Shown one piece after another: positions 30,077 to 49,354 of a stretch of 64,000 bases of DNA. Below the pieces are notes generated by a model. It was not told the DNA's origin. It made no database searches and was given only the letters and a program-made list of their open reading frames with translations. The position numbers and the translations under genes were made by a program. Origin of the DNA: Chloroflexota bacterium (GTDB taxonomy: Bacteria; Chloroflexota; Dehalococcoidia; DSTF01; RBG-16-68-14); assembly GCA_003228685.1 (NCBI GenBank), contig QIFC01000115.1:6028-70027 (forward strand). The letters run 5' to 3'. Position 1 is the first letter of the stretch, and each line of letters opens with the position of its first letter.

Positions 30077-32953
30077 CTAGTACGCGAGCCAGCTCCAGAA
30101 GATACCGCTCGGCGCGCCCGGGAAGGTATCGATCAGGCCGGCGGCGTATTGGAGGATCAGCGCGGCGTCCAGCGGGTCGATGACGCCGTCGCCGTTGACG
30201 TCCGCGACGTTCGGGAACGGCACCTCGGCGATGTTTGCCGCCTGGAAGAGCACCCAGAGCGCGTCCAGCGGGTCGATCACTGTGTCGCCGTTGACGTCGC
30301 CCAGGTCGGGCTTCTCAGCAGGTGTCGTCGGTTCGCCGAAGTTCCATGCGCTCGCGGTGGAGCTGTGGATTGTGATTTCGATGTCACCTTCGGCGGTGCC
30401 GGTGAGCAGATTGCGCTTCGAGACGCACGGGTCCGGCGAGGCCGTGCCTGAGAGGCCCGTGCAGTTCGGCACCAGGATGCCGCCCTTGAAGACCGGCAGG
30501 TTGGCCGCCGTGATATCGTCCGGGACGATCGATTCGTCCAGGAGGAACCGGACGATCAGCGGGAACTGCGAGGTGCCGGCGGGCGCGCTGATGTTGGACT
30601 GCTGGCCGAAGAGGTGGTAGCCGGGCGGGTCCGGCTGGTTGATCAGCTTCTCAGTGATCGTGACCTTGCCGCCGACGGGCAACGTCACCGACGTCTCGAG
30701 CGGGTCGTCGGGCGTGGCGTCGAAGCCGGTCGTTACCTTGCCGCCCGGCGGCACCGTGCCTTGTGCGCCGTCCGGCGGCGCTGGCGTTGGCGTAATCGTC
30801 GGGGTATTCGTCTCGGTCGGCGTCGACGTTTGCGTCGGCGTGTCGGTCACCGTCGGCGTGTTTGTCGGCGTGGGCGTCGGGCAGGCGCTGGGGCCGCCGG
30901 GGCACGGGGTGTTCGTCGCTGTCGGCGACTCCGCGGGCGTTAAGGTCACGGTTGGCGTGATGGTCGCCGTCGGCGCCGGCGGCGGAGCTTCGCAGTTGAT
31001 GCGCAGCAGGTCGAGGAGCACGAAGTTATCATCCTCGTCCTTCACCGTGTCGCCGTCTTCATCCAGGGTGCGCGCGCCAATATCGGGCATGCTTCCGGGC
31101 GTGTAGAAGAGGTTGCTCTCCAGCGCTTGGTCCGGCTTGAAGAACGCGGAGCCGGTTTCGTTGAGGATGCCTCCCTGCTGGTTGTTCGCCGTCCGTTTCG
31201 TCAGGCCGATCGCGAACTGGCCCTCCTCCTGGCAGCGCACGTTCATCTCGGCGAGCCTGCCGACGCTGAGGTCTGAGAGGAGGGGCAAGAGCCCGTTCTC
31301 GGTTGCCCTGGCGTCCAGTCTGATCACGTTGGAAGGGTTGCTGCCACTCTTTGGGAATCTGTCGCAGTTGAAGGCGGTCCCGCTATCCGGCCGCCAGATG
31401 ATGTCATCGACGCACGGACGCGGCTCGTACACCAGCCCGGCAAGGTACGTCTCCAACTGGAAGCCGCCGTAGCCGTCCGGGATCGCGTCCGCGTTGACGG
31501 CGATCGTGAACGTGCTGGGGTCGTCCGCGTTGAACGGCGCCGTGCACTTGTCATCGGAGTCGCACACGATGCCGGTCCCTTCGGCAGAGAGCGACATCTT
31601 CTGCTTGATGAGCGCGCAGTCGATCTCGAGCACGTCGGCGTACGGATCGTCGACGAGGCCGACCTCCACGGGAGTGCCGTCGGCCAAGAAGAACGCCGAT
31701 GTCTCGGTCAGTCTGGCGAACGTGTCGTTGTTCGTGAGCCCGTTGCAGTAGACGTCCAGCTCCACGAGCGAGCCGTCGTGATCGCTGTTCGGGAAGGGCG
31801 GCTCCGCGGCTCTGCTCGCCTGGTGCTGAACTTGGAGCGCTGGTGGAGTGGCTGGCGCCGGTGTGATGGAACGTTCGCAGCTAGCGTTGAACAGGTCCGG
31901 CCAGATGTCGACCTCCTCCACGCAGCCGGCGGCATCGTCATCAGGGTTGCGCGGGTTGTACGTGAGTTTCTCGTCCAACAGCACCTCGGACTGGAAGCCG
32001 CCGTAGCCATCCGGCGTCGGGATCGTGTTGGCGTTGACGAAGAGCGTAAATTCGCCGAGTTTCTCCTGGCCGGGCCAGAAGTTCGCGCGGCATTGGGTCG
32101 GCTTGTCCTCGTCCCCCGTGCACGAGACGTAGCCGGGCTCGTCTTCGAGCGCGCCGGGCTCGCCGGTCGCGCTGAGCGACATGATGGCGCCCGGCAGCGG
32201 CGTGAATGTTGGCGTGATGGTGGGCGTGGTGGTTGGTGTTGCTGTTTCGGTGGCGGTTGGCGTGGGTGTCGCCGTTGGCGTGTTCGTCGGAGTGGCGGGC
32301 AACGCCCCTCCGGCGCCGCAGTTCACGTGCAGCGTGTCGACCTTCGGAATGATCTGGATGTTATTGGGATCTACGAACAATGAACCACTCGAACCGGCCG
32401 GGGGTACGCCGTTCGGCAGGAGTTCAATGATCTGACTGCTGCCCGTAGCCGAGCAGGTCATCGAGAGGTCGACGAAGTTGCCCGTGTAATTACTGACTGG
32501 CAGCGGGGGGAAAAAGCCCGTGACGCAGCCATGGCCGACGTTGCCAGCAGGAGGAGGATTGTTGGTCTGCGTGGGATCGATCCTGAGCAAGATTGCCCCC
32601 AGGCCGCACAGTGGCGGCTGCATCTCTTCAAGAACCGGCGTGCCCAAGTTGTACGTGACGTTTTCGAAGTAGTTGACCCAGGAGTTCACCGTCGTGAAGC
32701 CGGCGTCCGGAGCATCGATGATATCGACCGAGAGCGTGAAGTCGCCGTTGAGCGGAACACAGACCTCGCCCGGCGCGGTCGTGGCGCAGGTCTCAAAGCC
32801 ATCTTTGACCACCAGGACCATCTCGGCATCCGGTTCTACGGCGGACGTGACATTGAGTTCGTTGACGATAATGAACGCGCCCGCCACGAACGCGACGAGA
32901 ACGGCTGCCAGCACCGCAAGCCGGCCGGTCTCTCCCTGCCTTTGGAAACTCAT
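30077..32953 (-). CDS. secreted 958-aa protein: 3 Cys-bracketed cohesin-like modules, PT linkers, an unknown domain and a C-terminal type-I-like dockerin
   Basis: N-terminal hydrophobic anchor (LAVLAAVLVAFVAGAFIIV). Module copies end in ..VNCG, ..IDCA and ..INCE. Linkers include [32 protein letters not shown]. The C-terminus is GDVNGDTVIDPLDALWVL...DVNGDGVIDPLDAALILQ. Confidence 0.8.
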   Translation of the reverse strand: MSFQRQGETGRLAVLAAVLVAFVAGAFIIVNELNVTSAVEPDAEMVLVVKDGFETCATTAPGEVCVPLNGDFTLSVDIIDAPDAGFTTVNSWVNYFENVTYNLGTPVLEEMQPPLCGLGAILLRIDPTQTNNPPPAGNVGHGCVTGFFPPLPVSNYTGNFVDLSMTCSATGSSQIIELLPNGVPPAGSSGSLFVDPNNIQIIPKVDTLHVNCGAGGALPATPTNTPTATPTPTATETATPTTTPTITPTFTPLPGAIMSLSATGEPGALEDEPGYVSCTGDEDKPTQCRANFWPGQEKLGEFTLFVNANTIPTPDGYGGFQSEVLLDEKLTYNPRNPDDDAAGCVEEVDIWPDLFNASCERSITPAPATPPALQVQHQASRAAEPPFPNSDHDGSLVELDVYCNGLTNNDTFARLTETSAFFLADGTPVEVGLVDDPYADVLEIDCALIKQKMSLSAEGTGIVCDSDDKCTAPFNADDPSTFTIAVNADAIPDGYGGFQLETYLAGLVYEPRPCVDDIIWRPDSGTAFNCDRFPKSGSNPSNVIRLDARATENGLLPLLSDLSVGRLAEMNVRCQEEGQFAIGLTKRTANNQQGGILNETGSAFFKPDQALESNLFYTPGSMPDIGARTLDEDGDTVKDEDDNFVLLDLLRINCEAPPPAPTATITPTVTLTPAESPTATNTPCPGGPSACPTPTPTNTPTVTDTPTQTSTPTETNTPTITPTPAPPDGAQGTVPPGGKVTTGFDATPDDPLETSVTLPVGGKVTITEKLINQPDPPGYHLFGQQSNISAPAGTSQFPLIVRFLLDESIVPDDITAANLPVFKGGILVPNCTGLSGTASPDPCVSKRNLLTGTAEGDIEITIHSSTASAWNFGEPTTPAEKPDLGDVNGDTVIDPLDALWVLFQAANIAEVPFPNVADVNGDGVIDPLDAALILQYAAGLIDTFPGAPSGIFWSWLAY

Positions 32954-33324
32954 CCTCAGCCCCTTCCTCTCTGCCCCACCCCGCCGCTGACCCTCATGCC
33001 GCGCGGGAGTGTCGTGCTGACTGCCCTTCTAAAGACAGCCGTGGCCGGCATGCACGACCTCCACTTCACCTCATCCACCCGTACCGACGTGCTTGTCGGC
33101 CTCGCACACGGGCCTGATTCCTCACTCAGGCCCACTGAACTGGGAGTAAGCTTACCACACATAATGTGTAACGTAGCAGCCCGCGTCCTAGCCAGTATTT
33201 AACACATGTTAAGAGTACTACGGGGCTGGACTGCGGGGTATTAGGGTTTTCCCTTAATTGTGCTAACAGTCCGTCATAGGGAGCCCGGTCCGTGACGCTT
33301 CGAGAGACCTCAAGCTTGGGCGGC

Positions 33325-34332
33325 TCAGAGGCATCTGAACAGGTTGAGTTCGATCCAGAGGATGAACAGGGCATCGAGGGGGTCAACGACGCCGTCGCCG
33401 TTGACGTCGCCCGGGTGAGGCAGGCTGGGGATCATGGTGGTGCTGAACCAGAGCACCCAGAGCGCATCCTCCGCGTTGACGCGCCGGTCGCCGTTGACAT
33501 CGCCGCAGGGGAGGATGGCGCTGACGAAGGTGGCGGTCGGCGTCACCGGAGGCGGCGTGGCGGTGGGCGACGGCGTGGGTGTCGACAGGTCCGGCGTCGG
33601 CGTTACCGTGTCCGTGGGGCCGCCGGGGGTGCGCGTGGGCCCCGGCGTGGGCGTGGGCGGCTCGCCGCAGATCATGGTCAGCCCCGTGGTCTTGGGAACG
33701 ACATCCTCGTTGTCCGGGCCGCGGAACAACGAGCCGACGGTGCCGGTGGGGGAGGCGTCCGACGAGAACCTGGCGTAGGGGAGCATCTCAATTGGGTTGC
33801 TGCTGTCCCGCGGCGAACAGACCAGGACGATCTCCACGCCGATGCCGACGAAGCTGCTCGGCGGCGGCGCTATGATGCCGGAGAGGCAGCCGTGGCTGAC
33901 GAGCGTGTCGGTGTTATTCCCCAAACCGGGGAGCCGCTGGTCTGTCTGGGACTTCAGGGCGGTGGCGGGTTCGCAGTTCGGCCAGAGGATCTCAGAAATG
34001 GCGGTTGGCGAGAAGTCGTACGTGATGGCGCTGCCGTAGAGGATGGACGACTGGAAGATGATGTAGCCGGGGTCGCCGTTGCTGTCGGCGGCCGGGGCGC
34101 GGACGATCTCCACGCCGAGCTTGAAGGACTCGTTGGTGGCGAGCTGACACACCCCTTCCACGCAAACGTCCGGCGGGTCCGTCACAAGGAGCCGCATCTC
34201 GGGTCCTTCTCCGAAACCGGACGTCGGCGTCGCCGTCTGATCGGCCAGGACCAGCGTAAGGGCCAGCAGCAGTCCCAGTCCGAGGAGGAACGCTGTGAGA
34301 TGCTTGGCACGCCGTCCGGGTTGCACGCTCAT
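33325..34332 (-). CDS. secreted protein: cohesin-like N-module, PT linker and type-I-like dockerin
   Basis: The ATG at 34332 follows GGAGGG. Signal peptide LTAFLLGLGLLLALTLVLA. The module runs GPEMRLLV...GLTMICG. The C-terminus is CGDVNGDRRVNAEDALWVL...GDVNGDGVVDPLDALFIL. Confidence 0.8.
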   Translation of the reverse strand: MSVQPGRRAKHLTAFLLGLGLLLALTLVLADQTATPTSGFGEGPEMRLLVTDPPDVCVEGVCQLATNESFKLGVEIVRAPAADSNGDPGYIIFQSSILYGSAITYDFSPTAISEILWPNCEPATALKSQTDQRLPGLGNNTDTLVSHGCLSGIIAPPPSSFVGIGVEIVLVCSPRDSSNPIEMLPYARFSSDASPTGTVGSLFRGPDNEDVVPKTTGLTMICGEPPTPTPGPTRTPGGPTDTVTPTPDLSTPTPSPTATPPPVTPTATFVSAILPCGDVNGDRRVNAEDALWVLWFSTTMIPSLPHPGDVNGDGVVDPLDALFILWIELNLFRCL

Positions 34333-34539
34333 CGACCGGATCCCTCCAGAAAGCCCCACCCATCACGTCCGGTTCTGCCGCCGCCGATCTACAGCGGCTA
34401 TCGATCAGTTTACCATACGTGCGCTGAGCGGCCGTAGCGGGACTGGGGCGTCTCCTCAATCAGAGGGGGCACCCCGACTTGCGTCGGAGCGCCCCCCCAA
34501 TGAATCTCGAGTATCGTTACGCGTTCGCGATAACGGCTC

Positions 34540-35487
34540 CTAGCAGGTAAGCCTGTCCTGGTCGAGCAGACCGGCAACTACTTGCTGGATGAGAGCGGCG
34601 TCTCTGCTGTCCACGTTGCCGTCGCCGTTCACGTCCGCCTGATCACCCTTCGGCAGGCGGTCTGCGCCGTCAATGAGCCCGGCCTCTACTTGGAGGATGA
34701 GGAGCGCGTCTACGGCGTCCACCGCCTCGTTGTCGTTGACGTCGCCACACTGCTGTTCCGACGGGGTGCTGGTCGGCGGGACCGGCGTATTCGTCGGCGT
34801 GTTGGTGGGCGTGTCGACCGGTACGTCGTCCGGCGTGTTGGTCGGCGTTTCGTCCGGCACGTCCGGCGTGTCGGTTGGATCACCGCCACCAGCACCGCAG
34901 ACGATAGTGATGTTGCTCACCTTCGGAATAATGGGATTATCGCCAGGATCCTTGAACAGCGCGCCATTGGTGAGAGCGATCGGGTCGCCCTCTGGTAGCA
35001 GTTGCACTAACGTGCTGCTATCACCAGCCGAGCAGTTCATGGAATAGTTCAGAAAGTTGCCCGTGTAGGTGCTTACGGGACGCACCAGAATCCCGGTGAT
35101 GCAACCGCTAAGGACCGACTCTGGGTCCAACTGATCCCGCAGCGCTATAGACGCAGGGCTGCACTCTGGGAAGGAGAACTCGTCGAGAGGCAAATCCGTT
35201 GGCTTGTAGGTCAGGTCAGAGCCAAATACGACATATGACTGGGCCAAAATGTAGCCTTCGGCCGGCGCCGTCAAGACCTCCACCGAGAGGGTAAAGGCAG
35301 CGCCCGGTTCGACCGTGCAGGTGGAGCCTTCGCAAGTCCCACCTTCGCTGACTGTCAACGCCATCTCCGGGCCACCTTCGGCCGCGTCCGTGGTGCTGGT
35401 CAGGTTATCGGCCATGAAGAACGTCATTGCCAGCAGGGCAATCACGGCTGCCGCGCCGAGCCCTAGAATCCTTTTGCTTCGCTCCAT
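34540..35487 (-). CDS. secreted protein: cohesin-like N-module, PT/D linker and type-I-like dockerin
   Basis: The ATG at 35487 lies 6 nt after AAGGAGGT. The module runs GPEMALTVSEGGTCEGSTC...NITIVCG. The C-terminus is CGDVNDNEAVDAVDALLILQ...DVNGDGNVDSRDAALIQQ. Confidence 0.8.
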   Translation of the reverse strand: MERSKRILGLGAAAVIALLAMTFFMADNLTSTTDAAEGGPEMALTVSEGGTCEGSTCTVEPGAAFTLSVEVLTAPAEGYILAQSYVVFGSDLTYKPTDLPLDEFSFPECSPASIALRDQLDPESVLSGCITGILVRPVSTYTGNFLNYSMNCSAGDSSTLVQLLPEGDPIALTNGALFKDPGDNPIIPKVSNITIVCGAGGGDPTDTPDVPDETPTNTPDDVPVDTPTNTPTNTPVPPTSTPSEQQCGDVNDNEAVDAVDALLILQVEAGLIDGADRLPKGDQADVNGDGNVDSRDAALIQQVVAGLLDQDRLTC

Positions 35488-35525
35488 GCTGTTACCTCCT
35501 TGCATTTCCTACTTGGTCTCTACTC

Positions 35526-36317
35526 CTAGCGGCTGCGTGCCGCGCGCCAGCCGGACGCACCGAGGCCGGCGGCGCCAATGGCGAATAGGCCGCCGATCAC
35601 GAGCCACAGCATCGCGTTAGAACCATTGTCACCGGTCGAAAGCGGACCGCTCCCTGAGGGCGGAAGCACGATATCGCCGTCGCCGTCTCCGTCGCCGTCT
35701 CCGTCCGGGGTCGCGGTCGGCTCTGGCGGCGCTTCGCCGCAGTTGACCGTCACGGAGGCAACCTTGGGGAAGATCTGCTCGCCATTGTCCCCCGTCAAGA
35801 GAGCGCCGCTCGTGCCCGCGACGGGGTCGCCCTCGGGCAGCAACTGCACGTTGTTGCTGGAGAAGGTGTCGCTGCATTCCATTGCAAGCTCGAATACGGA
35901 GCCTTCGTAGGTGCTCAGCGGCAGCGGCGGGATGACGCCCGTGAGGCCGCCGTGCAGCACGGTATTTGGCGCAATCGAGTCGCGGACGACGACGTCCGGT
36001 ATCACGTCTGGCCACGTGACCTCTTCTCCGGCAGTGTCGGTCATATTGTATGTAAGGTCTGGGCCGTAATCGATGAACGACTGCACGAGCACGTAACCCT
36101 CGGCAGGCGCGGCGTCGACGTTGACTGTAAGTGTGAACGACTCTCCAAGATCGAGGTCGCACTCATCACCAGAGCATCCTGACACGCTGAGCGACATTGC
36201 TGCCGCTTCTTCAGCCAGCGCTGCCGGCTGAGCGAGGTGGCCCAGCATGAACACCGCGGCAAGGGCGGCGCCGATGATTGCTATGCGACTGAATGTGTTC
36301 CGTCCCTGTACTCCCAT
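35526..36317 (-). CDS. cell-wall-anchored protein: single cohesin-like module plus an LPPSG sorting signal (no dockerin)
   Basis: Signal peptide, then a module AMSLSVSGCSGDEC...SVTVNCG. It ends in DGDGDGDGDIVLPPSGSG + LWLVIGGLFAIGAAGLGASGW + RAARSR, that is, LPXTG-like motif, TM helix and basic tail. Confidence 0.8.
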   Translation of the reverse strand: MGVQGRNTFSRIAIIGAALAAVFMLGHLAQPAALAEEAAAMSLSVSGCSGDECDLDLGESFTLTVNVDAAPAEGYVLVQSFIDYGPDLTYNMTDTAGEEVTWPDVIPDVVVRDSIAPNTVLHGGLTGVIPPLPLSTYEGSVFELAMECSDTFSSNNVQLLPEGDPVAGTSGALLTGDNGEQIFPKVASVTVNCGEAPPEPTATPDGDGDGDGDGDIVLPPSGSGPLSTGDNGSNAMLWLVIGGLFAIGAAGLGASGWRAARSR

Positions 36318-36609: not shown

Positions 36610-36631
36610 AGAATATCAGGCTTCGAAGGCG

Positions 36632-37465
36632 CTAAGGCTGGTTGCAGGGCAGTTGGAACTGCAGGATCGTGCCTAGGATGTCGTTTGCCAAGTCGATGAA
36701 GCCATCGCTATTGATGTCGAACGCGGGGCTCCAGTCAGGATCGAGGGGCGTCATCTGGAACCGGATAATCACGCCCAGGATGTCGTTCGCCAAGTCGACG
36801 ACTCCGTCTCCGTTTGGTGGCGGCGAGTTGTCCGCGCAACCAAGGTAGACGATGTTGGAGTTCTTCAAGGTGAGCGGTATCTGCTCCAAATCCAGGTCGA
36901 CCGGAGCGTCAAGCAGGAACGTTCCCTGAACGCCGACATCTGGGGCCACAAACGCGAGCGGCGAAGAGAGGGCCATCTCTGAGCCTGGAGTCAGCACGAG
37001 GTGCCCGATCAAGCCGGTGCCGGTCGGCCCCAGGGGCGGAGGAGGACTCAATGTTGAGCACAGTCCGATGACTTGACCTGCCTGGGGGTTCTGACCGGGA
37101 ATGCACGCTCCGGACCGGTTGGTTGACTGGAGCCACGCCCTGTCGCCAATCCCGTCTGCGTCGCCAGGGGCGGCGGAAGCTGCGAAGAGGGAGTCATCAT
37201 ACTGTACGGCGATGTTGAAGCCCGAGACGCCGGTAGGCTCCTTGACGTTGGTAGCCCACACGTAGATGTCACGTGGAAATCCGTTTGGAGTGAGGATGAT
37301 AGCCGGTGCGCCTATAGGACTTAGGCTTGAATAGCTGAACATGATCTGCGTGTCGGTTGCGCTCTCGGCGCTGGGTTGCCGCGCCAGGCTTAACGTGATA
37401 ACAACCGCGGCTGCCAGGATAACGACCTTCGTCAGAGTGAGCGTGCTGCCTATCAAGACCTTCAC
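36632..37465 (-). CDS. secreted protein: cohesin-like domain plus a 'DLANDILG'-type double dockerin-like module
   Basis: The GTG at 37465 lies 4 nt after AGGAGGAAG. TGVSGFNIAVQYDDSLF is a cohesin-like strand. The C-terminus is DGVVDLANDILGVIIRFQ...DGFIDLANDILGTILQFQ. Confidence 0.75.
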   Translation of the reverse strand: MKVLIGSTLTLTKVVILAAAVVITLSLARQPSAESATDTQIMFSYSSLSPIGAPAIILTPNGFPRDIYVWATNVKEPTGVSGFNIAVQYDDSLFAASAAPGDADGIGDRAWLQSTNRSGACIPGQNPQAGQVIGLCSTLSPPPPLGPTGTGLIGHLVLTPGSEMALSSPLAFVAPDVGVQGTFLLDAPVDLDLEQIPLTLKNSNIVYLGCADNSPPPNGDGVVDLANDILGVIIRFQMTPLDPDWSPAFDINSDGFIDLANDILGTILQFQLPCNQP

Positions 37466-37769
37466 TAAACTTCCTCCTGCGCCGTTCTTCGCCGGCAGGC
37501 GCCTCGTCTTCTGCTCCCCACGTCTATTCACGCCGCCGTAAGAGCCCTCAGGCGCACCAACGTATCGCCTGAGTCTTGCGCGCTACGAACGCTTGCGTTG
37601 CGTCATTCCTTAGCACTCTGCGTCTCTCCATTAATCCAACGGTCGAATGCGACAATTCGTAACGCAATCTGTCGCTGTCGTGCCTTTTTCTGATGGCTCC
37701 CCTCGTCAAGGCCCGCGTCCCGTCCCTCCCGGGACCTAACGAGGACAGCCATGCCGGCCAGAAGATGAA

Positions 37770-39761: not shown

Positions 39762-41966
39762 CTAGAGCAGCAGCGAGCAGTCTTGTGTGAAGTTCTGGAT
39801 TACGGGCAACATATCGAAGGCCAGGCCGACGAATCCGTCACCGTCGAAGTCGTAGAGCACGTCGAATTCGATGTCACTATCCGAGAGGCCGAGGGACTCA
39901 ATCATCGTGAGAATGTCGTTAGCCAGGTCAACAATGAGGTCTCCGTCGATATCGAAGCAGGCGCGTAGCAGGGTCGTTTCGCTCGCGTCGTTGCCCGCTG
40001 GTATCTCGTCGGGGTCGGACGCGGTGACGGTCACGCTGTTGATGATGTTCCTGTCCTCCAGCAGGGTTGGGGCCCGCACGTTGAGCGTGATCACCACCTG
40101 CTGGTTGACGTTGATCTCGTCGATGGTGCATTCCACTTTGTCGCCAGGTATCGCCTGACAGGCGGCGCCAACCGCGGACTCGAACGTGGCTGGCCTAAAG
40201 ACCGAGCCGGTGACGAGCGTAATGCTCGCGAGGGGCAGCGTGTCCGTCACAACAACGTCCAAGGCGTCTCCCAGGCCCTGGTTGAGGACGGTGATCTCGT
40301 AGCTGTAGTAGCCCAGGCGCAGCACAGGATCTTGGGAGTCCGTCTTTGAGACGACGAGGTCCGGTGGCGGCGCGATCACGGCTGTGTTCTCGACAGCTAG
40401 GTTGTTGCCTGTCTGGAGGAACAGCTCGTTGTCGGAGGTGACGAACGCCGAGTTCTTGAGGAAGGTACTTCTCGTGACTTCCGGCGCGGTCAGGACGATC
40501 TGGACGATCGACTCCGCGTTGGGAGCGAGCTTGCCGAGGTCGCACGTCACCTCACCGCTGTCCAATACGCACCCGGGGCCGGCCGAGACGAACGCCGCCT
40601 CCGGCGGCAGGGTGTCGACAATCTGGACGTTCTGCGCCGGGTGCGGCCCCAGGTTCTTAGCGACGAGGGTGTACGTGACGTCCTCACCACCGTCCAGAAA
40701 CGTGGGATCCCCTACCTTGGTAAGGATGACGTCGGAACGGGGCGCCAGCACCATCGTCTGCTCGATGTCTTTGTTGTTCCCCGTGTTGGCGAACGGTTCG
40801 TTCGTGGACGTCACGGTCACATTGTTGTCCACCAGCGCGTCCGTCACCTGCGTGGGCGCGTTGACGGTGATATCGATTGTGATGATATCGGTGGGCGCCA
40901 TGTCGCTCGTGACAGCGCAGGTCACGACGCCGGCCACGTGGTTGCACGTGGCATCGGCGGACGCCGCCGACTTGAACACTGATCCGGCGGGCAGCGTGTC
41001 TTCAACGACGACATTTTCGGCGGTCTGCAGTCCGATACTCTCGACCGTGATCTGATACGAAAGGCTGCCACCTGAGTCGACCGGGTCGATGAGGTCGACT
41101 TTCGTGACCTTCACGTCGGGCCGCTCGCTGGGTGGAGGGAGCGGCGTTGGCGTGTTCGTCGGCGTCGGCGATACGGTCGGCGTGGGCGTCGGCGGTATCG
41201 GCGTGTCCGTGGGTGTAGGTGTCGGGCCGACGCACTTGATCGTGAGCGTGTCCACCTTCGGTATTATTTGCGTGTTCGTACCGAATTCGGTGAACAGACT
41301 GCCGCTGGTCCCAGCCAGTGGGTCTCCTTCAGGGAGTAGCCGCACGAGCGTGCTGCTGGAGGAGGCGGAGCAGTTGATGTTAAGGATCACGAGGTTGCCA
41401 ATGTAGTCACTCGGCGGCTGTGGAGGAATTAGCGCGGTCAGTCCGCCATGGCCGATCGAAGCTGGAGCAATGTCCGTCCTGAGTGCGCCGCCGGGGAACA
41501 AGTGGGGCCAGACAACCTCATCACTCGGAAAGGTCGTGGGTTTGTAGGTCAAGTCCTCGGTTACGCAGTCGGCGTCTCTCCTGTCCGCGCCGCCGCCGCC
41601 ATTATCGATGTTGTCGCTGCACGTATTGGGGCCGTAGCCATCTTCGCTTGCGCTTGGGTTGTACGTGCCGAAGTCAACGAATGTATTCATCAGGATGTAC
41701 CCGCCGGCCGGGATACCCACTGCCTCTACGGCTAAGGTGAAGGGATCTTCAGCCATGACACATATCGTGTCCGGCCCGGTTCCCAGCGGACACGTTGTGC
41801 TGCCGCTCTTGACTGAAAGCGCCATCTCGGGCCCACCGCCAGCGGCCTCGGCTCGCTCATGAGCCGGCTGTTGCCATGTAAGGACGACCGCTACGGCCGC
41901 CACAATAATGGCCGGTACGATCAGAAGTCGCAGAGCCATCCTCTTCCGTTTCGTGTTGCCCTCCAT
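39762..41966 (-). CDS. secreted protein: cohesin-like N-module, PT linker, DUF11-type repeats and a 'DLANDIL'-type dockerin-like module
   Basis: AAGGAGGAGGG precedes the ATG. The module runs GPEMALSVKSGSTTC...TLTIKCVG. There are about 4 repeats of the pattern V.K.....V..G..V.Y.I.V.N.G...A.NV.V.DTLP, which I take as DUF11-like. The C-terminus is DGDLIVDLANDILTMI...DGDGFVGLAFDMLPVI. Confidence 0.8.
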   Translation of the reverse strand: MEGNTKRKRMALRLLIVPAIIVAAVAVVLTWQQPAHERAEAAGGGPEMALSVKSGSTTCPLGTGPDTICVMAEDPFTLAVEAVGIPAGGYILMNTFVDFGTYNPSASEDGYGPNTCSDNIDNGGGGADRRDADCVTEDLTYKPTTFPSDEVVWPHLFPGGALRTDIAPASIGHGGLTALIPPQPPSDYIGNLVILNINCSASSSSTLVRLLPEGDPLAGTSGSLFTEFGTNTQIIPKVDTLTIKCVGPTPTPTDTPIPPTPTPTVSPTPTNTPTPLPPPSERPDVKVTKVDLIDPVDSGGSLSYQITVESIGLQTAENVVVEDTLPAGSVFKSAASADATCNHVAGVVTCAVTSDMAPTDIITIDITVNAPTQVTDALVDNNVTVTSTNEPFANTGNNKDIEQTMVLAPRSDVILTKVGDPTFLDGGEDVTYTLVAKNLGPHPAQNVQIVDTLPPEAAFVSAGPGCVLDSGEVTCDLGKLAPNAESIVQIVLTAPEVTRSTFLKNSAFVTSDNELFLQTGNNLAVENTAVIAPPPDLVVSKTDSQDPVLRLGYYSYEITVLNQGLGDALDVVVTDTLPLASITLVTGSVFRPATFESAVGAACQAIPGDKVECTIDEINVNQQVVITLNVRAPTLLEDRNIINSVTVTASDPDEIPAGNDASETTLLRACFDIDGDLIVDLANDILTMIESLGLSDSDIEFDVLYDFDGDGFVGLAFDMLPVIQNFTQDCSLLL

Positions 41967-42023: not shown

Positions 42024-43754
42024 TTATACAGGCAGGCGCGGCAGCAGACCTGCATCGAATTGCAGGACGAGCGCGGCGTCCACACTATTGATTCCACCGC
42101 CGTTGACGTCGCCTTCCGCATCGCATGGGAGCGACGACACCAGCCCCGCGACGCGCTGTAGGATCAGGGCCGCATCGACGCTGTTCGTCGTCGCGTCACA
42201 GTTCACGTCGCCCGATCCACCCGTGATGCCCGCTGGCCCCGCGCAGCTCGCTGCGTCGATGTCGTCCGTCTGGCGCAGGCCGAGTGTCGCGGCGCTGTAC
42301 GCCACGACCGGTGGACTTCCGGCCTTGATCATGTCGCCCGCACTGGCCCCTATCGCGGGCAGGGTAGGCGAGCCCGGCGCCAACGAGAACAGCAGCGTGT
42401 CTGATGCGCTGTAGACGTCGTCACCACGTTCAACGAGGCAGAGGCCGTCGACGTCGTCCGTCGCCTGAAGACCCAGTTGTTCGCGAGATGCGTAGAGGGA
42501 TGGAGTCTCGGCGTTCGAGGTGCGCAGTATATCGCCCGCGGTGAAGCCGAGCGCGGCCAGAGAAGGCGACGAGGCGTCCAGAGAGAAATAGACTGGGCTC
42601 TCCGGCACGCCGTCCGCGTTCCGGTCGACGACCGATGGATCCCAGGCAACGAACGCATCCAGCTCATCTCTCATGGACACCGCTTCGAGAAGCCCGAGCG
42701 GGAAGGCTGCCTGGCAAGCGCCCACTGGCCCGTTTCCGTCAAAGAGAAGCAAATTCGTCCCAGCCAGCAGCGAGCGAAAGATATCCGACTCTGGTTCCGG
42801 GGAGAGGCCGGGCTCCGCGGGAGGGCAGAGGCTCTGCACCTCTACGGCGCTGCCGTCGCTGCCGAGCGCTCCGGCAGTCACAGAGAAGTCGACCGCCGGT
42901 TCAGTCTCCACGACCGCTGAGCCGAACGACAGAGCGTCTACGTTGTCTTGGCCAAAGGAATCATCGCAGCCGTCGTCCGAGAGCCCCAGACTATCGCACG
43001 CAATGCGCAGATACGGCGCCTGACCGACGCCTGGCAGCGCCACGGCCGGCAAAATTCCGAGAATGTCCGCTGGATGGAATTGGGACGCATCTCTACCAAC
43101 TGAGAAGCTCGCCGGGAGCGGGGCCACCGCGATACTCAGGCTACGGATGCAGAGTCCCAGTTCGGATTCGAGGTTCGCCTCGTCCACAAGCGGGATGCAG
43201 GCGTCCGATTCAGGAAGCTCGAACGTCACGTCAAACGGTGGCCATGCTTCAAGGAGAGTTGCTGTTCCGTCCGATGCGGGCTCCAGGTCCAGACTGGCTT
43301 CATTGTGCAGAAGCAAGGGGCCAGCGGGGCTGGAAGGCACCTCCAGATCGAGGAACAGGTTTAACGTGGCCGTAGCCGGGAAGGGCTGGCCGGGCGTGAT
43401 GCCACGCAGTTGACCACCTGACTTGTATGATTCTCCGGCGTTCGCCCGTTCCGTGACGGCCACGAGACCGAAACGGCTCGCGCCAACAAGCTCAAGGCTG
43501 GCGATCTCAAGGTCCACGATCTCAATGCCATCCTCCGTATGCGGTGCTCCGCGGATCACCTCAATCCAACCTCTTAGGATCACCAGATCCTCGCCCAGCA
43601 GACTGCCCGCCTCAGCGACCACGGCCACGGGAAGCACATCGGCGCCAACTACCGGCATGCCGCCTGCCCTGGCGGGGCTGCCGGCTCCCGCCAGCACCAC
43701 GAAGGAGAGGGCGCAGACGCCTGCCATCGCGTAACCTGCAGTGCGAATGTTCAT
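42024..43754 (-). CDS. secreted protein of unknown fold with a C-terminal type-I-like dockerin
   Basis: The ATG at 43754 gives the signal peptide MNIRTAGYAMAGVCALSFVVLAGAGSPARA. The longer ORF start at 43862 would overlap the scaffoldin stop by 4 nt. The C-terminus is GDVNCDATTNSVDAALILQ...GDVNGGGINSVDAALVLQ. Confidence 0.75.
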   Translation of the reverse strand: MNIRTAGYAMAGVCALSFVVLAGAGSPARAGGMPVVGADVLPVAVVAEAGSLLGEDLVILRGWIEVIRGAPHTEDGIEIVDLEIASLELVGASRFGLVAVTERANAGESYKSGGQLRGITPGQPFPATATLNLFLDLEVPSSPAGPLLLHNEASLDLEPASDGTATLLEAWPPFDVTFELPESDACIPLVDEANLESELGLCIRSLSIAVAPLPASFSVGRDASQFHPADILGILPAVALPGVGQAPYLRIACDSLGLSDDGCDDSFGQDNVDALSFGSAVVETEPAVDFSVTAGALGSDGSAVEVQSLCPPAEPGLSPEPESDIFRSLLAGTNLLLFDGNGPVGACQAAFPLGLLEAVSMRDELDAFVAWDPSVVDRNADGVPESPVYFSLDASSPSLAALGFTAGDILRTSNAETPSLYASREQLGLQATDDVDGLCLVERGDDVYSASDTLLFSLAPGSPTLPAIGASAGDMIKAGSPPVVAYSAATLGLRQTDDIDAASCAGPAGITGGSGDVNCDATTNSVDAALILQRVAGLVSSLPCDAEGDVNGGGINSVDAALVLQFDAGLLPRLPV

Positions 43755-43858
43755 GAGAACCGGGCCTTCGACCCGCTGCGAGGCGGGAATACCAGCTTGG
43801 AGAGGGCGTGGCGCCAGTATACGTTCCCTCTTAACAGTGTCGCAAACAGCTAGCCTGT

Positions 43859-46800
43859 TCAAGGCCTAGTGTCCTGCCGCTCGGACGCTAGGACCTCTCT
43901 GAACCGAAGCCTGAACGGTTCCCGCGCGCTCACTCTCTGACGTCGCCACCAAAGCATCCGTGACCCGATCAACATGGCGAGGCCGCCGAGCAGGGCCGCG
44001 CCGGCCAATGATGTCGAGAGCCGGTCCTGGCTGTTTGAGCCGCTCCCTGTGTCTGGGAGGCCGACCACGGGCCCGCGTGCGGATGGCGCGACATCGCTGA
44101 CGGGTGTAGCCGTCGACGCGCCGATGACGGGCGGCCCGGTGTCGGTACCGTCCGTGGGCGTGGCGGTTGCCTGCGGGCTGTCGGTGGGCCTCGCGATGAA
44201 CACGGGCGTAGCCGTTGGGACCGGCGGCGAAGTCGACGTTGCTGTAGGCAGTGGCGTCGCTGTCGGCGGCCGCAGTGGCGTGGGCGTCGCGGTGTTTGGA
44301 AGAACGGGCGTGTCCGTGGCCGTTGCGTCTGGCGCTGGAGTATCGGTCACCGTGGCGCCCGGTACCGGCGTGTGCGTCGAGGTTGCCGTCACCGTAGCCA
44401 GCGTCGTTGGTGATGGCTCTGGCGTGCCCGAGCTGGACGGCTCCTCGGTTGGCGTAACCGTTGCCGTTACGGTCGGGAGCGGTGTCGCCGTTGGCGTGTC
44501 GCCCTCGGTTGGCGTGGCCGTCGGCGTCACGGTTGCGGCGGGCGTGCCAGCATCCTCACCGCCGGGCGTTGGCGTGCTCGTCGTGGCCGGAGTGACCGTC
44601 GCGCCGGGAGTCGTGGTGACGGTGGCCACAGGCGTCGGCGTTGGCGTCTGATCTATCGGCGATGGAGTCGGCGTAAACGTCGGCGTGGTCTTCGTGGGTG
44701 GTTCCTGCGCCTGCCACGGGTTCGCACAGGTGCTGCCATGACGGCCGTAGACGGCCTGCAGGTCGTTGATGTCGATGTCTCCGTCCGCCACGCCTTCCGG
44801 TTCCAGGTCGAACCATGTTTCGTAGAACTTGGAGCCCTTTTCAGCTCCGAAACGGGCGGCGACCATCTGCTCGTCTGAGACGTTCACCGCGCAGTCGGCG
44901 TTGATGTCCGACTCAAGGACACGGACGATGATTCTGGCATCTCCGACGAGGTTAAGCGGGATGGAGTTGCCGAGCGTATCCGAGAGCTGCGTATTGCCCG
45001 CGATATCGTCGAGGACCACCTCGATGCCGTTACCCGGCGCGGGGCGTAGCGGCAGATCTGAGAGAGGCGTGACATGGACGCGAGCGAGGTCGAACGTCCC
45101 GGTCGGGCCGGGGTCAGATCCAGACGTGACGCAGCCGAAGCGAATCTCTCCTTCCGTGAGGTCTGAGAGACAGGTAGCGGTGCGGTCCGTGCCTGCGATG
45201 GCATCTAGGAAGGGCTGACCATCAATTTCGAGCGATACAACCTTATGGTTGAACTTGATGGAAAGCTCAAATCCGCCTACCCCAGGCCCCGCCGGTGTGT
45301 TGTAGGCACGTTCGTAAATGATCAACGGCTCATTTCCGATGAAGAGGTTGGCTTCACTCGGTTCCTTGGCGATGGCCACCACCCCTTCGCCGGGCTCCAC
45401 GGCGGGAGCAGCGACGCTTTGCGTGCCGTCCGGATAGGCGACGGCCAATTTGCCTGACGTGACGGCAACTCTCAACGGTGCAGGAGAGATCCCGGACAGG
45501 GATGGGCTTCCCGGCGTGGCTGTCGGCGTCTGCGTTGCGGCCGGGAGAGGCGTGGCCGTCGATGGCGCGACAACTCCAATGATGCCGTCCTGTGTCACGA
45601 TGGGCAGCAGAAGCGCGCTCGAAATGTCTGTGAGGATCGGGTTAGACAGGTGCTGCGTTGAAAGACCTTCGCCGACGGCCAGGTAGGTGAACGTCGCGAT
45701 GACGCCGGAACCGTCAGGTCCAGGGACGATGGAGCCAATCGATGCGCAGGCGAAGTCCACGAATCCGGCTCCGAACGTCGCCGGAAGACAGGCGAGACTC
45801 CTTCCGGTGCTGCCCAGGAACGGGCCAACTGCAACCTCTTGTATTGTTGTCACCGCCGGGCTGAAGTCGAGCCTAAATTGGAAGGCCCCCAGGTCGGTCA
45901 CGTTCTCCACGACGACGTCGACGGAGGTGATTGTTCCCAGGTCCACTGTCTGATTTGTCGGCTGGATACGCATCGTAATCGGGCCAACTGCGGGCGTTGG
46001 CGTCGCTGTTGGCGTGTCTATAGGTATGGGCGTGTCCGTTGGCGTGGGTGTATCTGTTGGCGTTTGCGTGATGGTGGCCGTCGGGCAGATGCCGCCTGGA
46101 CACGGGGTTGGTGAGAGCGTCGGTGTTGGCGTGTCCGAAGGCGTTGGACTCAGCGTCGTCGTCGGTGTGCTGCTTGGCGTGACGGTTGGAGCGACGCCGA
46201 CGGACAGCGAGCCGCCTTGAAGCACCGGTGCCAGATGGGCGAGCCCTCCAATGTCCGTCAGGATCACGTCCTGGAGCGTCAGTGATGTGAAGCCGATGGC
46301 GTCTCCGGTCAAGGTGACGAATGCCAAGACTCCCGAGCCGGTGGGCCCTGCAGGCTCGGGTTCAAGCGTAACGCAGACGTATTGGATGATCCCTGGGCCA
46401 AACGTTGGGGCTAGACACGTGGTGTTCCGCAGCGTGCTCGAAAGGAAGGGTCCTGGGTCGATCCCGGTCACCGATGCGACGGCCACATCGTGGGTCAGCG
46501 TTACCTGGAATGCGCCCAACTCAGGCGAATTAGCGACCGCGATTTCGTAGACGGCGTCGCTGCCTTGGGCGATCGACTGGTCGGCAGGCTGGAGGCAGAC
46601 GGTGAGCACTAAGGCCGCGTTACAGGCCGGCGGCGTTGGTGTGGCGCTCGGCGTAGCTGTTGGACCTGTGGGCGTGGACGTTGGCGTGGCCGACGGTGGC
46701 GCCGGTGTGGGACACGTGATGTTGCCCAACACGGTCACGTCACTACCCTGGGAAGCGACGGGAATGGGGAGGCCGGCCGTGTCCGCGATCTCCAGCGAAC

Positions 46801-49354
46801 TCAGTTCCAGCACGTCGCTCCCAGTGCAGAACGTCCCAAGGCGGACGTTCGCCAGAACGCCGCTCCCCGTGATGCCGGGCGCGCTACTCATGACACAGCC
46901 GTAGGCCATTGTGCCGGCGATCGGATCGACGTCGGGGCCGACGCAGACGACGCCGCCCCCGGTCGACGCGAGGAACGGACCGTTGGTGATGCTGTCGAAC
47001 GTCAGTAGGGTCGGGTCGAACGCAAGCGTAAACTGGTAGGCACCGAGGTCGGCGACGCTATCAATCTCAAGTCCGAAGACAACGTCCGCGCCTTCGGTGA
47101 CGCCCTGTGAGCTTGGGTTGAAGCGGACGTTCGTAGCGGGAGTTGGGGCCGGCGGCGTTGGTGTGTTCGTTGATGTCGGTGTTGGTGTTGGGACGGGCGT
47201 TGGGCAGCCCGTGCTGCCGATCACCGTCGCGCTGCCGTTCTGGCTCGCGGCCGCTATCGGACTGCCGGCTGAATCGGCGAGGCTTAGTTGTGTGATGGCC
47301 AAGCCGCTCGTGCCGCCGCAGAACGTAGCCAAACGAACAGTGGCAAGTACACCCGTCCCGTCAGGGCCAGCGGCGCCTGTCAGCGTACAGCCGATCTGGA
47401 CGGTCCCAGAGATCGGATTGACGTTGGGCCCGAGACAGAACGCCGCGCCTCCGGTGCTCTCAAGGAAGGCGCCATTGAGTGTATCAATGTGAGTCAGCAG
47501 GGTGGGGTCGTAGCTCAGCGTGAACGTGTAGCCGCCGAGGTCGGTGACGTCGTCGACCACAAGATCAACCACCACGTCAACGCCCTCGACCACGCCTTGG
47601 GAACTCGGATCTACTCGAACCAGCGTAGACGGGGCCGGCCCGGTCGGGGTCGCCGTAGGTATGGCCGTGGCGGTCGCTGTGGACGAAGGCGAGCAGCTTG
47701 TACCGCCGTTCACCCCAACGCTTGCATTGTGACCGACTGACGGTATCGCTCCGCCGACCGCGTCCGCGACGCTGACGTTCGCGAGTGTCAGCGCACCCGT
47801 CCCGGCGCATGAGGTTCCAAGCCGGACCGTTGCGAGCGTACCCGTGCCTGTGACGCCTGTCGCACTAGTTGACAAGCACCCGAAGCCGACCGTGCCCAGC
47901 GTTTCATCGACGGTGGGTCCGACGCAGACCACGGAGCCTCCGCTGCTACCCAGGAAGCTGCTGTTCGTGACATCCACGAACGTCAACAGCGATGGGTCAA
48001 AGGCGAGCGTGAAGTCGTATGCGCCCATCTCCGTGACAGCGTCAATGACGACATCGATGACGACATCGGCGCCCTCGCCGACGTTCTGGGCGTTCGGGTC
48101 GATGCGAACGACGGTCTCCGGAAGCGGCCCTGGCGTCGGCGTGGCTGGCGGTGTCGGTGAGGGCACCGTCGCCGTTTCTGTCGGCGTAAATGTGTCGGTT
48201 GGTGTCAGCGTATCCGTAGGCGTTGGGGGATCCGCGATGGTGATGTCGCCGCCTTGTTCCGATGCGATGAGGATCTTGGCACTCGTAATATCCGCCAGAA
48301 GCGTGTTCTCAAGCGTTAGGGTTGAGAAGCCGACGGCATCTGCCTGGAGCACTACGAGCGCCAACATGCCCGAGCCGTCCGGACCGGGCGGTTCGGTGCC
48401 AATCGATGCGCAGGCGAATGTCACTCGGTCTGGCAGCAGTTCAGGCAGGCAAACTATGGAGCGGCCGGTACTGCCCAAGAAGGCTGCGTTCAATACCGCG
48501 GCCGGTGACAGCAGTACGCTGTCGAAGACCAGATCGAACTGGAACGCCCCCAGGTTCGCGACGTTGTCAACGGCGATCAGGACCTCAGCCTGCCCGCCGG
48601 TGAAGGCGGCCTGCGAGACCGGCACGACACAGATGGCCGGACCGGCTGCGGCCGCACAGAGCTGCGGTGCTGGCGTTGGGGGCGGGCCTGTCGAGGTGGC
48701 CGTGGCCGTCGGCGTCGGACTCGGCGTAGGTGACGCGGGTCCGGGCGTTGGGGTCACGGTTGGCGTCGGACAGGCGCCGCCCCCAGTTACCGAAGCGCTG
48801 CCGTCTTGAGTCTGCGATGGAAGACCTGTTCCGAGTGCATCTCCAAGACCGGCAAGGGTGAAAGCGAGTGGAGTTGAGCCGGCGCATGATGTGCTGAACG
48901 TGATTGTTGCCAGTACGCCGCTGCCGCTCGGCCCATCTGGCGGCGGTGGCGCAAAGGTCACGCAGCCGTAGCGGACCGTGTCCGGACCGAGCTGCGGCGG
49001 CAGACAGGTGACACTTCTGCCAGTACTGCCGAGGAATGGGCCGTTCGTGACCGAGACGAAGGTTAGGATGCTCGGTTCGTATTGGATCTCGAACTCGTAG
49101 GCCGCAAGGCTTGTGACATTGTCGATGCGAATGTCGACGACGACGTCTGTTCCCGCGGAGACGTTCTGCGCCGGCGGGTCGACTCGAATGATGGTCGCAG
49201 GCGTCGGCGTAGGCGTAGGCTGCTGCGCTTGGGCTGTCGATGGAGCGAGCGTGCCTGTCGCTATCAAGAGGACGAGCACAGCTAAGGCCGCTCCGGCTCG
49301 TACTACAGTGGCCAGATGCAAGAGACTGGTCTCGCCGGAGGAGCGCAGCATCAT
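43859..49354 (-). CDS. 1831-aa scaffoldin-like protein: 7 tandem cohesin modules, 1 divergent cohesin, a dockerin-like module, a ~200-aa PT stalk and an LPDTG sortase signal
   Basis: Signal peptide ..[10 protein letters not shown]. Repeated ~140-aa modules follow the pattern (V/I)R(V/I)DP..Q.V..G.DVVVD..(I/V)D.V..LGAY.F.L..DP..L..V......FLGSTG....C.....G.V..GC.......G.GVLA...... and are separated by PT linkers. The C-terminus is [10 protein letters not shown] + hydrophobic helix + WWRRQR. Confidence 0.85.
45569..49195 (-). repeat. seven tandem ~420-nt cohesin-coding modules separated by PT-linker low-complexity DNA
   Basis: Module boundaries come from a hand count of the translation: aa 54-193, 232-373, 413-553, 577-716, 741-880, 910-1054 and 1124-1262. 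Confidence 0.75.

Follow-up and report, generated by a model that had tools for sequence, protein, structure and literature searches.

A predicted sortase-anchored cohesin-dockerin surface complex encoded by a conserved locus of Dehalococcoidia

Introduction

What kind of surface structure is encoded by nine adjacent genes of a Chloroflexota bacterium whose products are exported and are built largely from cohesin-like and dockerin-like modules? The genes lie at positions 30077-49354 of a stretch of 64,000 nucleotides from contig QIFC01000115.1 (Dehalococcoidia; assembly GCA_003228685.1), which we call the window. An original prediction, made from the letters of this DNA, had described them as a novel, wall-anchored cohesin-dockerin system without enzymatic cargo. 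Here we suggest, with moderate confidence and on the basis of sequence comparison and structure prediction, that the nine genes are the structural core of a cellulosome-like, sortase-anchored, multi-tier cohesin-dockerin surface complex.

Cohesin-dockerin assemblies are standard modular extracellular machines and a major toolkit of synthetic biology. To our knowledge, nearly all of the characterised assemblies come from cellulolytic Bacillota. The cohesins of classical primary scaffoldins are near-identical and interchangeable, and cellulosome producers encode their dockerin-bearing enzymes at dispersed sites of the genome rather than beside the scaffoldin genes. Clostridium perfringens has cohesin-dockerin complexes of glycosidases and toxins that are not directed at cellulose. 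Peer et al. 2009, in FEMS Microbiol Lett, are said to have surveyed non-cellulosomal cohesin and dockerin modules across bacteria and archaea, including a pair from Archaeoglobus fulgidus. Ruminococcus flavefaciens, like other cellulosome producers, is known to have adaptor scaffoldins (PMC12484212). It also has a sortase-anchored single-cohesin scaffoldin, ScaE (Rincon 2005, as cited in PMC12484212), and the amylosome of Ruminococcus bromii is a non-cellulolytic cohesin-dockerin complex (PMC4611034).

Organization of the locus

Nine consecutive open reading frames (ORFs) on the minus strand, g1 to g9 in transcription order, fill positions 30077-49354, exactly where they had been placed before. 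Their parts were resolved by all-against-all BLASTP and custom hidden Markov models (HMMs). In the list, Coh stands for the canonical cohesins, CohX for a second cohesin-like family, and DocA, DocB and DocC for three dockerin classes.

43859-49354, minus strand: g1, putative wall-anchored primary scaffoldin of 1831 amino acids (aa); Pfam Cohesin E 1.7e-37; eight Coh HMM matches
42024-43862, minus strand: g2, signal peptide, DynF-like beta-barrel, Cys-rich four-repeat domain, class A dockerin
39762-41966, minus strand: g3, putative adaptor; CohX, Pro/Thr linker, three DUF11/CLIPPER domains, DUF7619 match, class B (flexitail-type) dockerin
37895-39424, minus strand: g4, putative adaptor; CohX, linker, class III cohesin fused to DocC
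36632-37531, minus strand: g5, cohesin joined straight to a class B dockerin; Coh HMM 6e-34, contiguous with DocB
35526-36317, minus strand: g6, putative ScaE-like anchoring protein; single CohX (8e-75), short acidic linker, LPPSG sorting signal
34540-35505, minus strand: g7, putative adaptor; CohX (the copy modelled below), Pro/Thr linker, class A dockerin
33325-34359, minus strand: g8, putative adaptor; CohX (4e-60), Pro/Thr linker, class A dockerin
30077-32953, minus strand: g9, putative multi-CohX adaptor; three CohX, Pro/Thr linker, ~135-aa domain, class A dockerin

A cohesin-fold module occurs in eight of the nine proteins, and seven of these eight also have a dockerin-type module. In g3, g4, g5, g7, g8 and g9, one or more cohesin-fold modules stand together with a dockerin of class A, B or C; g2 is the sole subunit without a cohesin.

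Several readings of the original prediction were borne out at this level. All nine proteins had been described as exported, and an N-terminal hydrophobic stretch is present in every one (best 15-aa Kyte-Doolittle mean 2.2-3.2). GGAGG-type Shine-Dalgarno sites, said to precede most of the genes, precede seven of the nine: they stand at the first start codon of g3, g4, g6 and g9 and at a slightly downstream in-frame start of g5, g7 and g8. The sites at g1 and g2 are weak, and these two genes overlap by 4 nucleotides (nt). The true start of g2 is probably codon 37 (the database copy, P0166, has 576 aa). The repeats described as DUF11-like are three Pfam DUF11 domains in g3 (1e-41), between CohX and DocB. 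A Pfam scan of the nine proteins found no family of glycoside hydrolases (GHs), carbohydrate-binding modules (CBMs), S-layer homology domains, proteases or lipases, as had also been stated.

The g1 scaffoldin and the canonical cohesins

The order of parts in g1 is a signal peptide, seven free cohesins (c1-c7), an eighth cohesin joined to DocC, a stalk of ~230 aa with 51% Pro+Thr, and an LPDTG sorting signal. Against the Pfam Cohesin family PF00963 the protein scores 129.2 bits, above the gathering cutoff of 24.1, and its eight cohesins make it a multiple-cohesin scaffoldin of the cellulosomal kind.

45560-49207, minus strand: cohesins c1-c7 of g1 (identity matrix; positional orthology among the loci of metagenome-assembled genomes, MAGs)
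44720-45403, minus strand: c8 (class III) and DocC of g1, no linker, contiguous HMM coordinates

Together with the single copies in g4 and g5, the eight modules of g1 bring the canonical cohesins to ten, and a joint profile of these matches solved cohesins (3l8q, 2e-9). They fall into classes by identity. Class I comprises c1, c3, c4 and c5 (44-54% identical to one another) and class II comprises c2, c6 and c7 (36-41%); c8 of g1 and the cohesin of g4 are 30% identical and form class III, and the g5 cohesin stands apart. The same Coh-DocC dyad is found in both class III proteins, with residues 1254-1552 of g1 aligning to 203-504 of g4 (32% identity, E 4e-32, BLASTP). A search for DNA-level tandem repeats beneath the cohesin repeats of g1 found none.

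A cohesin-fold family outside the profile databases

The cohesin-like modules of the locus belong to two unrelated-looking sequence families, the canonical one and CohX. The latter is a module of ~170 aa at the mature N-terminus of g3, g4, g6, g7, g8 and g9. Three copies are present in g9 (CohX HMM matches 3e-64, 2.5e-49 and 2e-6, the third copy being divergent), which also has a DocA HMM match. CohX has no Pfam or NCBIfam match (g6 as a whole; the CohX regions of g3, g4 and g7-g9) and, judged by profile, is not a sequence member of PF00963. A sequence-profile search against the PDB gave sub-threshold matches only (5lxv, E 0.42; 3ul4, E 1.2).

Recognising CohX as a cohesin needed a structure model, because sequence alone would have rejected it. 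An AlphaFold2 model of the g7 copy, built from a 23-sequence alignment, has a pLDDT of 94.3 and a pTM of 0.89. In a Foldseek search of the PDB, the best 50 matches of this model are all cohesins or cohesin-like proteins of types I, II and III (prob 1.00, TM-score mostly 0.5-0.8, best E 5e-8), headed by the R. flavefaciens ScaC cohesin 5lxv. Entries 2jh2 and 2w1n are also among the fold matches; we take these to be tied to the cohesin-dockerin complexes of C. perfringens. As modelled, CohX has the cohesin fold, a nine-stranded jelly-roll.

The family is large. An exhaustive HMMER search gave 679 CohX clusters at 50% identity (E<=1e-3) among 1.84 billion representatives. A homologue search with a single CohX sequence returned 2 matches only, and profile and exhaustive searches were required. 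CohX carries its own conserved Cys pattern and an LLPEGDPxAxTxG motif. CohX followed by LPXTG is a recurrent architecture across the family, and the CohX-Coh-DocC arrangement also recurs in relatives. The earlier statement that the locus is rich in cohesin-like modules is correct for the fold, by Pfam for the canonical modules and by AlphaFold2 and Foldseek for CohX; it had missed the division into two families, one of which is detectable by structure only.

Three dockerin classes and the flexitail domain

The duplicated segments that had been read as dockerins are dockerins by Pfam and by profile matches to solved dockerins, in three classes rather than one. Class A is found in g2, g7, g8 and g9, class B in g3 and g5, and class C inside g1 and at the C-terminus of g4. 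Class A is the canonical Dockerin_1 family (PF00404), with 33.5 bits for g7, 34.2 for g8 and 37.7 for g9 against a gathering score of 22.9; g2 exceeds this score with the segment by itself (25.1 bits) but not with the whole protein (20.9). Classes B and C remain below this gathering score (best, g5 with 15.0 and g4 with 12.6 bits).

Class B is a duplicated ...DGxIDLxNDILGVI..F segment. The DocB profile matches solved type II dockerins (4u3s_B at 3.4e-8, and also 4wi0_B, 5k39_B, 2y3n_B and 2b59_B). The DocC profile matches solved dockerins at 7.7e-4 to 7e-3, and DocC against DocB gives an hhalign probability of 94.7. DocC always stands directly behind a class III cohesin, with no linker. By these profile matches, classes B and C are dockerin relatives and not Pfam members.

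Class B corresponds to NCBIfam NF041520, "flexitail domain-containing putative surface protein". Two further proteins of the window carry this type of module, so that the system, with these two and with two sortase genes, reaches beyond 30077-49354.

58466-59386, minus strand: o2, exported 306-aa protein with a CohX-like region (3.9e-8) and a single flexitail-type half-dockerin, LDGIVDLANDILGVIQHF (DocB 3.7e-6); six-frame HMM scan
62605-64000, minus strand: TSP3 protein, 5' end off the window; TSP3 repeats, CarboxypepD_reg-like domain, full flexitail (DocB 7e-15)

The first of these is 9 kb outside the locus as first described. Only the TSP3 protein passes the NF041520 cutoff of 40 (135.9 bits); g5 (33.1), o2 (27.4), g1 DocC (20.3), g3 (18.3) and g4 DocC (15.0 bits) score below it. 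Judging from these scores and profiles, the flexitail is related to dockerins, is built as an EF-hand-type duplication and is found together with cohesin modules. The TSP3 surface protein is likely a passenger of the scaffold. A literature search on "flexitail" returned only unrelated antibody-engineering papers.

Sorting signals and sortases

Two proteins had been reported to end in sorting signals, g1 in LPDTG-TM-RRQR and g6 in LPPSG-TM-RAARSR (TM, transmembrane segment). Both signals are present, and two sortase genes adjoin the locus.

43862-44029, minus strand: g1 sorting signal; LPDTG, hydrophobic segment, RRQR, 24-aa tail; read from sequence
28018-28749, minus strand: sortase 1, membrane-anchored; Pfam Sortase 2e-20; NCBIfam class_F_sortase 110.9 bits (cutoff 166)
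26427-27155, minus strand: sortase 2, paralogue of sortase 1; Pfam Sortase 4e-21; class F 107.8 bits (cutoff 166)

The tail of g1 reads GLPDTG, then 28 residues that include a hydrophobic stretch, then WWRRQR. The tail of g6 reads LPPSG and then MLWLVIGGLFAIGAAGLGASGWRAARSR, with a hydrophobic stretch and a WRAARSR end; S here replaces T. Both proteins have the LPXTG-like motif, hydrophobic segment and basic tail of a sorting signal, and the same three parts, with a TM segment as the hydrophobic one, close every g6 orthologue of other MAGs. The two sortase genes share the strand of g9, lie 1.3-3.6 kb downstream of it and flank a DUF3105 gene. Because sorting motifs and adjacent sortases occur together, we infer that LPDTG and LPPSG may be the cleavage sites of these sortases, which would attach g1 and g6 to the wall by covalent bonds.

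Two other genes of this region are recorded here. A TolB/PD40-type beta-propeller with an N-terminal signal is encoded between g9 and sortase 1 (28842-29978, plus strand); two relatives likewise have a PD40 propeller, in their case fused to CohX. An alpha/beta hydrolase with matches to PAF-AH, PETase or scl-PHA-depolymerase-like proteins and a lipoprotein-like N-terminus (…LLVVGISAC) is encoded at 24486-25700 (minus strand). It lies on the same strand as sortase 2, downstream of it and of a small membrane protein, and has no dockerin.

Conservation across genomes

Loci of relatives were found by exact-protein look-ups and by a genome scan with the g2 family, and were annotated with the custom HMMs. 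Of the 21 loci, all but one come from Chloroflexota/Dehalococcoidia MAGs, the remaining contig being binned as "Acidobacteria". The survey of related genomes that had been called for showed that at least seven Chloroflexota/Dehalococcoidia MAG loci share this gene order, the seven distinct ones being L003/L011, L004/L010, L006, L008, L012, L013 and L016; the short contig L009 covers the g1-g2-g3 part. The conserved order is scaffoldin, g2, CohX-(CLIPPER)-DocB, CohX-Coh-DocC, (a cohesin-only protein), Coh-DocB, CohX-LPXTG and at least one CohX-DocA. A scan of genome contigs with g7 alone gave no loci. Rather than a one-off, the locus is an operon conserved on the chromosomes of a Dehalococcoidia lineage.

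The order of cohesins within the scaffoldin is conserved as well. Each of c1, c2, c6, c7 and c8-DocC finds its own counterpart in other MAGs. Only the copy number of class I varies, with 0, 1 or 3 extra modules in the layout c1-c2-[0-3 class I]-c6-c7. Such conserved, position-specific, divergent cohesins argue for slot-specific partners and for a defined hetero-complex rather than a random lattice. The scaffoldins of L006 and L012 lack the c8-DocC-LPXTG end and finish in a dockerin (class A and class-B-like, respectively); at these two loci the g6 orthologue is the sole sortase-type substrate.

Some loci differ in detail. An extra cohesin-only protein (~305-415 aa) lies between the g4 and g5 orthologues in L004 (16172-17113), L006 (15917-16867), L012 (16263-17177) and L013 (16225-17472); the g4-g5 gap of the window is 363 nt and holds no such protein. 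Between 36000 and 40000 of the window, which includes g4, g5 and their spacers of 310-360 nt, the GC content is 0.59 vs ~0.64 elsewhere. Four spacers of the operon exceed 300 nt; searches of them gave neither an Rfam family nor a terminator-like signal, and a promoter and terminator scan of the locus gave background level only. The contig binned as "Acidobacteria bacterium" (L007, JADFIY010000016.1) has a g2 orthologue of 82% identity at its end and no scaffoldin upstream. Because every other carrier belongs to Chloroflexota, this label probably reflects misbinning.

Candidate passengers

The original prediction held that there is no enzymatic cargo. This is true of the nine genes, and it was judged from the locus alone: in relatives, flexitails are fused to peptidases, some of them beside cohesin genes. 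A metagenome scan with the full flexitail domain of the window gave 25 loci with a GC content of 0.62-0.70, similar to the window. Among 20 flexitail-bearing ORFs, Pfam finds Peptidase_S8 in four (L031, L034, L044, L049), Peptidase_C1 in L040, M23 together with C92 in L046, and M28, M10 and M20 once each. The remaining ORFs have RCC1, FG-GAP or TSP3, Cohesin with DUF11, or nothing recognisable. Directly upstream of the L034 subtilase stands a Coh-DocC protein; neighbours at other loci are, among others, a CohX-DocB protein (L030) and a g2-type domain (L048).

A similar picture comes from 52 CohX-family proteins with extra regions, which carry RCC1 propellers (9), FG-GAP (4), PD40 (2), Peptidase_S8 (2), DUF11 and others; the single CAZy-type match is a weak Pectate_lyase22. 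No GH or CBM was found among the extra domains of these 72 relatives (52 CohX-family and 20 flexitail proteins). Likewise, Pfam-level scans found no GH in the 64-kb window and no CBM on any of the nine proteins. For the system as a whole, the statement that it has no enzymatic cargo is probably incorrect. On the evidence of carriers from relatives' contigs, the candidate passengers with the best support are peptidases and proteins of the propeller or adhesin-like kind; CAZymes are not among them.

Within the locus, g2 is the conserved candidate passenger. Its family has 154 homologues, mostly with Dockerin_1, from sources named for example "Chloroflexi bacterium" or "Dehalococcoidia bacterium". 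Its N-terminal region of ~480 aa was modelled with AlphaFold2 at a pLDDT of 93. For the first ~190 residues, the sole match is the beta-barrel protein DynF of the dynemicin pathway (6ubl; PDB Foldseek, prob 1.0, TM-score 0.67), and the Cys-rich four-repeat C-terminal part has no PDB fold match in Foldseek. A PDB sequence search with the N-domain gave nothing useful. The region is no recognisable enzyme. In some relatives (P0226; L017 7925-9727), the g2-type domain is followed by a Pro/Thr linker and LPQAG-TM-RR instead of a dockerin, and so the same passenger may be attachable directly by sortase or via a dockerin. The ~135-aa domain of g9 has no Pfam match and no PDB sequence match. The DUF11 domain of g3, a CnaA-like type that forms stalks in fibrillar adhesins and often has an isopeptide bond, has been renamed CLIPPER (PMC12617251).

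Proposed assembly and its alternatives

We suggest the following assembly. All subunits would be exported by Sec (signal sequences in nine of nine). Sortases would cut LPDTG and LPPSG, so that g1 and g6 become attached covalently to the wall, and the Pro/Thr stalk of ~230 aa would project the cohesin array of g1 outward. Dockerin-bearing subunits would dock in a class-specific, Ca2+-dependent manner, each divergent position of g1 taking one particular dockerin. The docked subunits would act as adaptor scaffoldins whose CohX modules, together with that of g6, form a second docking tier. This tier would recruit dockerin- or flexitail-tagged secreted proteins from elsewhere, such as g2 and the TSP3 protein at the end of the window; in related organisms the tagged proteins include subtilases and other peptidases as well as propellers of the RCC1 and FG-GAP types. 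Speculatively, the Coh-DocC dyad at the base of g1 could pair reciprocally with the one that ends g4. The likely role would be to present binding proteins and hydrolases, probably proteolytic ones, at the surface, so that the cell could attach to particulate organic matter and use it; plant cell-wall degradation is likely not the purpose.

A more specific form of this proposal is tentative, and we consider it possible though doubtful: an ordered, sortase-anchored "peptidosome" of Dehalococcoidia, in which the cohesin slots recruit specific adaptors and CohX displays flexitail-tagged peptidases, propellers and binding proteins. CohX would then form a new class of cohesins, and the flexitail a new class of dockerins. 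If true, it would be the first cohesin-dockerin machine for extracellular protein or necromass degradation and particle attachment outside Bacillota. The flexitail domain would also gain a function, as would an unannotated family of cohesins with ~680 clusters.

Several observations weigh against the proposed assembly. The cohesin fold of CohX is no proof of dockerin binding, and an hhalign comparison of CohX with the canonical cohesins of the window is insignificant (prob 0.6). Both sortases are nearest to class F yet fall below its cutoff, and an opposite-strand gene parts them from g9, with which they are thus not necessarily co-regulated. The carriers of peptidase-flexitail fusions come from other organisms, with flexitails 28-57% identical to those of the window, and the two flexitail proteins of the window outside the operon are non-enzymatic.

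The question of what CohX does separates the proposed assembly from one of its rivals, in which CohX is a displayed ligand- or glycan-binding jelly-roll head and g1 presents the heads of g3, g4, g7, g8 and g9 polyvalently, through their dockerins, as an adhesion organelle. CohX is always at the mature N-terminus, distal to the dockerin; it has its own Cys pattern and motif and shows no sequence similarity to canonical cohesins; the cohesin fold is itself a jelly-roll; and the 7 free cohesins of g1 would face 7 dockerin-bearing operon subunits besides g1. Even so, we regard this rival as quite improbable, and we favor CohX as a dockerin-binding cohesin for three architectural reasons. The combination of CohX, a short linker and a sorting signal in g6 and its orthologues matches the layout of ScaE and resembles an anchoring cohesin, not a distal head. 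With three CohX and one dockerin, g9 looks like an adaptor scaffoldin, as do g3, g4, g7 and g8 with one of each. Finally, the scaffoldins of L006 and L012, which have no sorting signal, end in a dockerin where the CohX-bearing g6 orthologue is the sole sortase substrate. The top 50 structural neighbours of CohX, moreover, are cohesins and cohesin-like proteins, not CBMs.

The same modules could also build a closed, self-assembling lattice or adhesive coat, S-layer-like or fibrous, in which Coh- or CohX-dockerin subunits bind head to tail on the g1 and g6 anchors without enzyme passengers. With a cohesin fold in eight of nine proteins and a dockerin-type module in seven of them, chains or networks are geometrically possible, and the dyad shared by g1 and g4 could allow a reciprocal handshake. 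The lack of a catalytic domain among the nine proteins and the CLIPPER stalk domains of g3, typical of fibrillar adhesins, point the same way. We nevertheless consider a lattice unlikely: the conserved, position-specific order of cohesins suggests defined stoichiometry and not open polymerisation, dockerin or flexitail tags are found on many proteins outside the operon, peptidases included, and g2 is a conserved passenger without a cohesin. An ordinary cellulosome, in which the scaffold would organise dockerin-bearing GHs encoded elsewhere for plant polysaccharide degradation, is highly improbable. It would share the cohesin-dockerin and sortase logic of R. flavefaciens (PMC12484212), and true producers also encode enzymes away from the scaffoldin cluster. 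Against this stand the scaffoldins without a CBM, the 64-kb window without a GH, the census of 72 relatives without a GH or CBM and with one weak Pectate_lyase22 match, and a literature search that found no link of cohesin and dockerin to Dehalococcoidia. For the lack of GHs and CBMs in the window and among the relatives, where the one weak match is pectate-lyase-like, we reject it.

Relation to known systems

The kind of system is already known, and to call it novel was too strong, since sortase-anchored scaffoldins (PMC12484212) and non-cellulolytic complexes (PMC4611034) have been described. What appears new is the lineage, the CohX family, the link between flexitail and dockerin, the obligate Coh-DocC dyad, the conserved slot-specific operon and the probable peptidase cargo. 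A literature search found no paper that combines cohesin, dockerin and Dehalococcoidia.

The closest likeness is to the R. flavefaciens cellulosome, with its clustered scaffoldin genes (the sca cluster), its single-cohesin LPXTG-anchored protein (g6 resembling ScaE), its one-cohesin, one-dockerin adaptors (ScaC-like) and its divergent cohesin types with distinct specificities, which are predicted here. In contrast, the present locus is from Chloroflexota and not Bacillota, and no CBM, cellulose-binding protein or GH cargo is in sight. The main scaffoldin g1 itself bears a sorting signal, CohX is outside Pfam Cohesin, two of the three dockerin classes are outside Dockerin_1, and almost every clustered subunit with a dockerin also has a cohesin. 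The R. bromii amylosome and the C. perfringens complexes likewise use cohesin and dockerin for something other than cellulose degradation. Their enzyme passengers are known (GH13 amylases in the former; GH84 and sialidases in the latter), whereas the in-locus passengers here are non-enzymatic and the probable enzyme passengers are peptidases of relatives.

The non-cellulosomal modules surveyed by Peer et al. 2009 are reportedly also from non-cellulolytic organisms and often on proteins of unknown function. Those are mostly isolated, whereas here there are a conserved operon, sortase anchoring, an ordered scaffoldin and module classes invisible to profiles. NF041520 has the 62605-64000 protein as a full member and the C-termini of g5, g3 and o2 as sub-cutoff relatives; NCBIfam names it only as a domain of putative surface proteins, whereas here it is a dockerin relative alongside cohesins. 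The three CLIPPER domains of g3, which stand between an N-terminal module as putative head and a C-terminal module for attachment, recall the head-stalk-anchor layout of fibrillar adhesins with DUF11/CLIPPER stalks (PMC12617251). The attachment of g3 is different, by a dockerin-type module and not by a direct sorting signal.

The locus represents a conserved, ordered, sortase-anchored version of the cohesin-dockerin principle in uncultured Chloroflexota, with a cohesin family that no profile database recognises. If the predicted pairings hold, they would provide additional orthogonal Coh-Doc specificities, explain the surface organisation of widespread sediment and subsurface bacteria, including their secreted peptidases, and give a concrete function to two un- or poorly annotated domain families. 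If they fail, the locus remains a clean case of re-annotation.

Other features of the window

The flanks of the window are chromosomal housekeeping genes. A nickel superoxide dismutase gene and an S26-type maturation peptidase lie at 51406-52262 (minus strand), with counterparts at 2181-3021 of L003 and 1244-2097 of L004. Together with a hypothetical gene and a NuoB-like gene (49717-50355), they make up an upstream flank whose synteny with the operon extends to two other MAGs. We reject an origin from a mobile element or phage because of the housekeeping flanks and the synteny of the same flank in other MAGs.

Further upstream of the operon, an 881-aa polytopic membrane protein (54647-57292, minus strand) has no Pfam or NCBIfam match; its long Arg-rich N-terminal extension suggests that the real start is further downstream. 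An Rfam scan found two tRNAs only, far from the locus; these 85-nt genes with a long variable arm stand side by side at 15559-15789 (minus strand). Near the other end of the window, gyrA is split (1697-4434, plus strand) into overlapping frames at 1697-3526 and 3376-4434, the second of which encodes the C-terminal beta-pinwheel. Because the gene is essential, the frameshift around 3376-3526 is probably an assembly or sequencing error.

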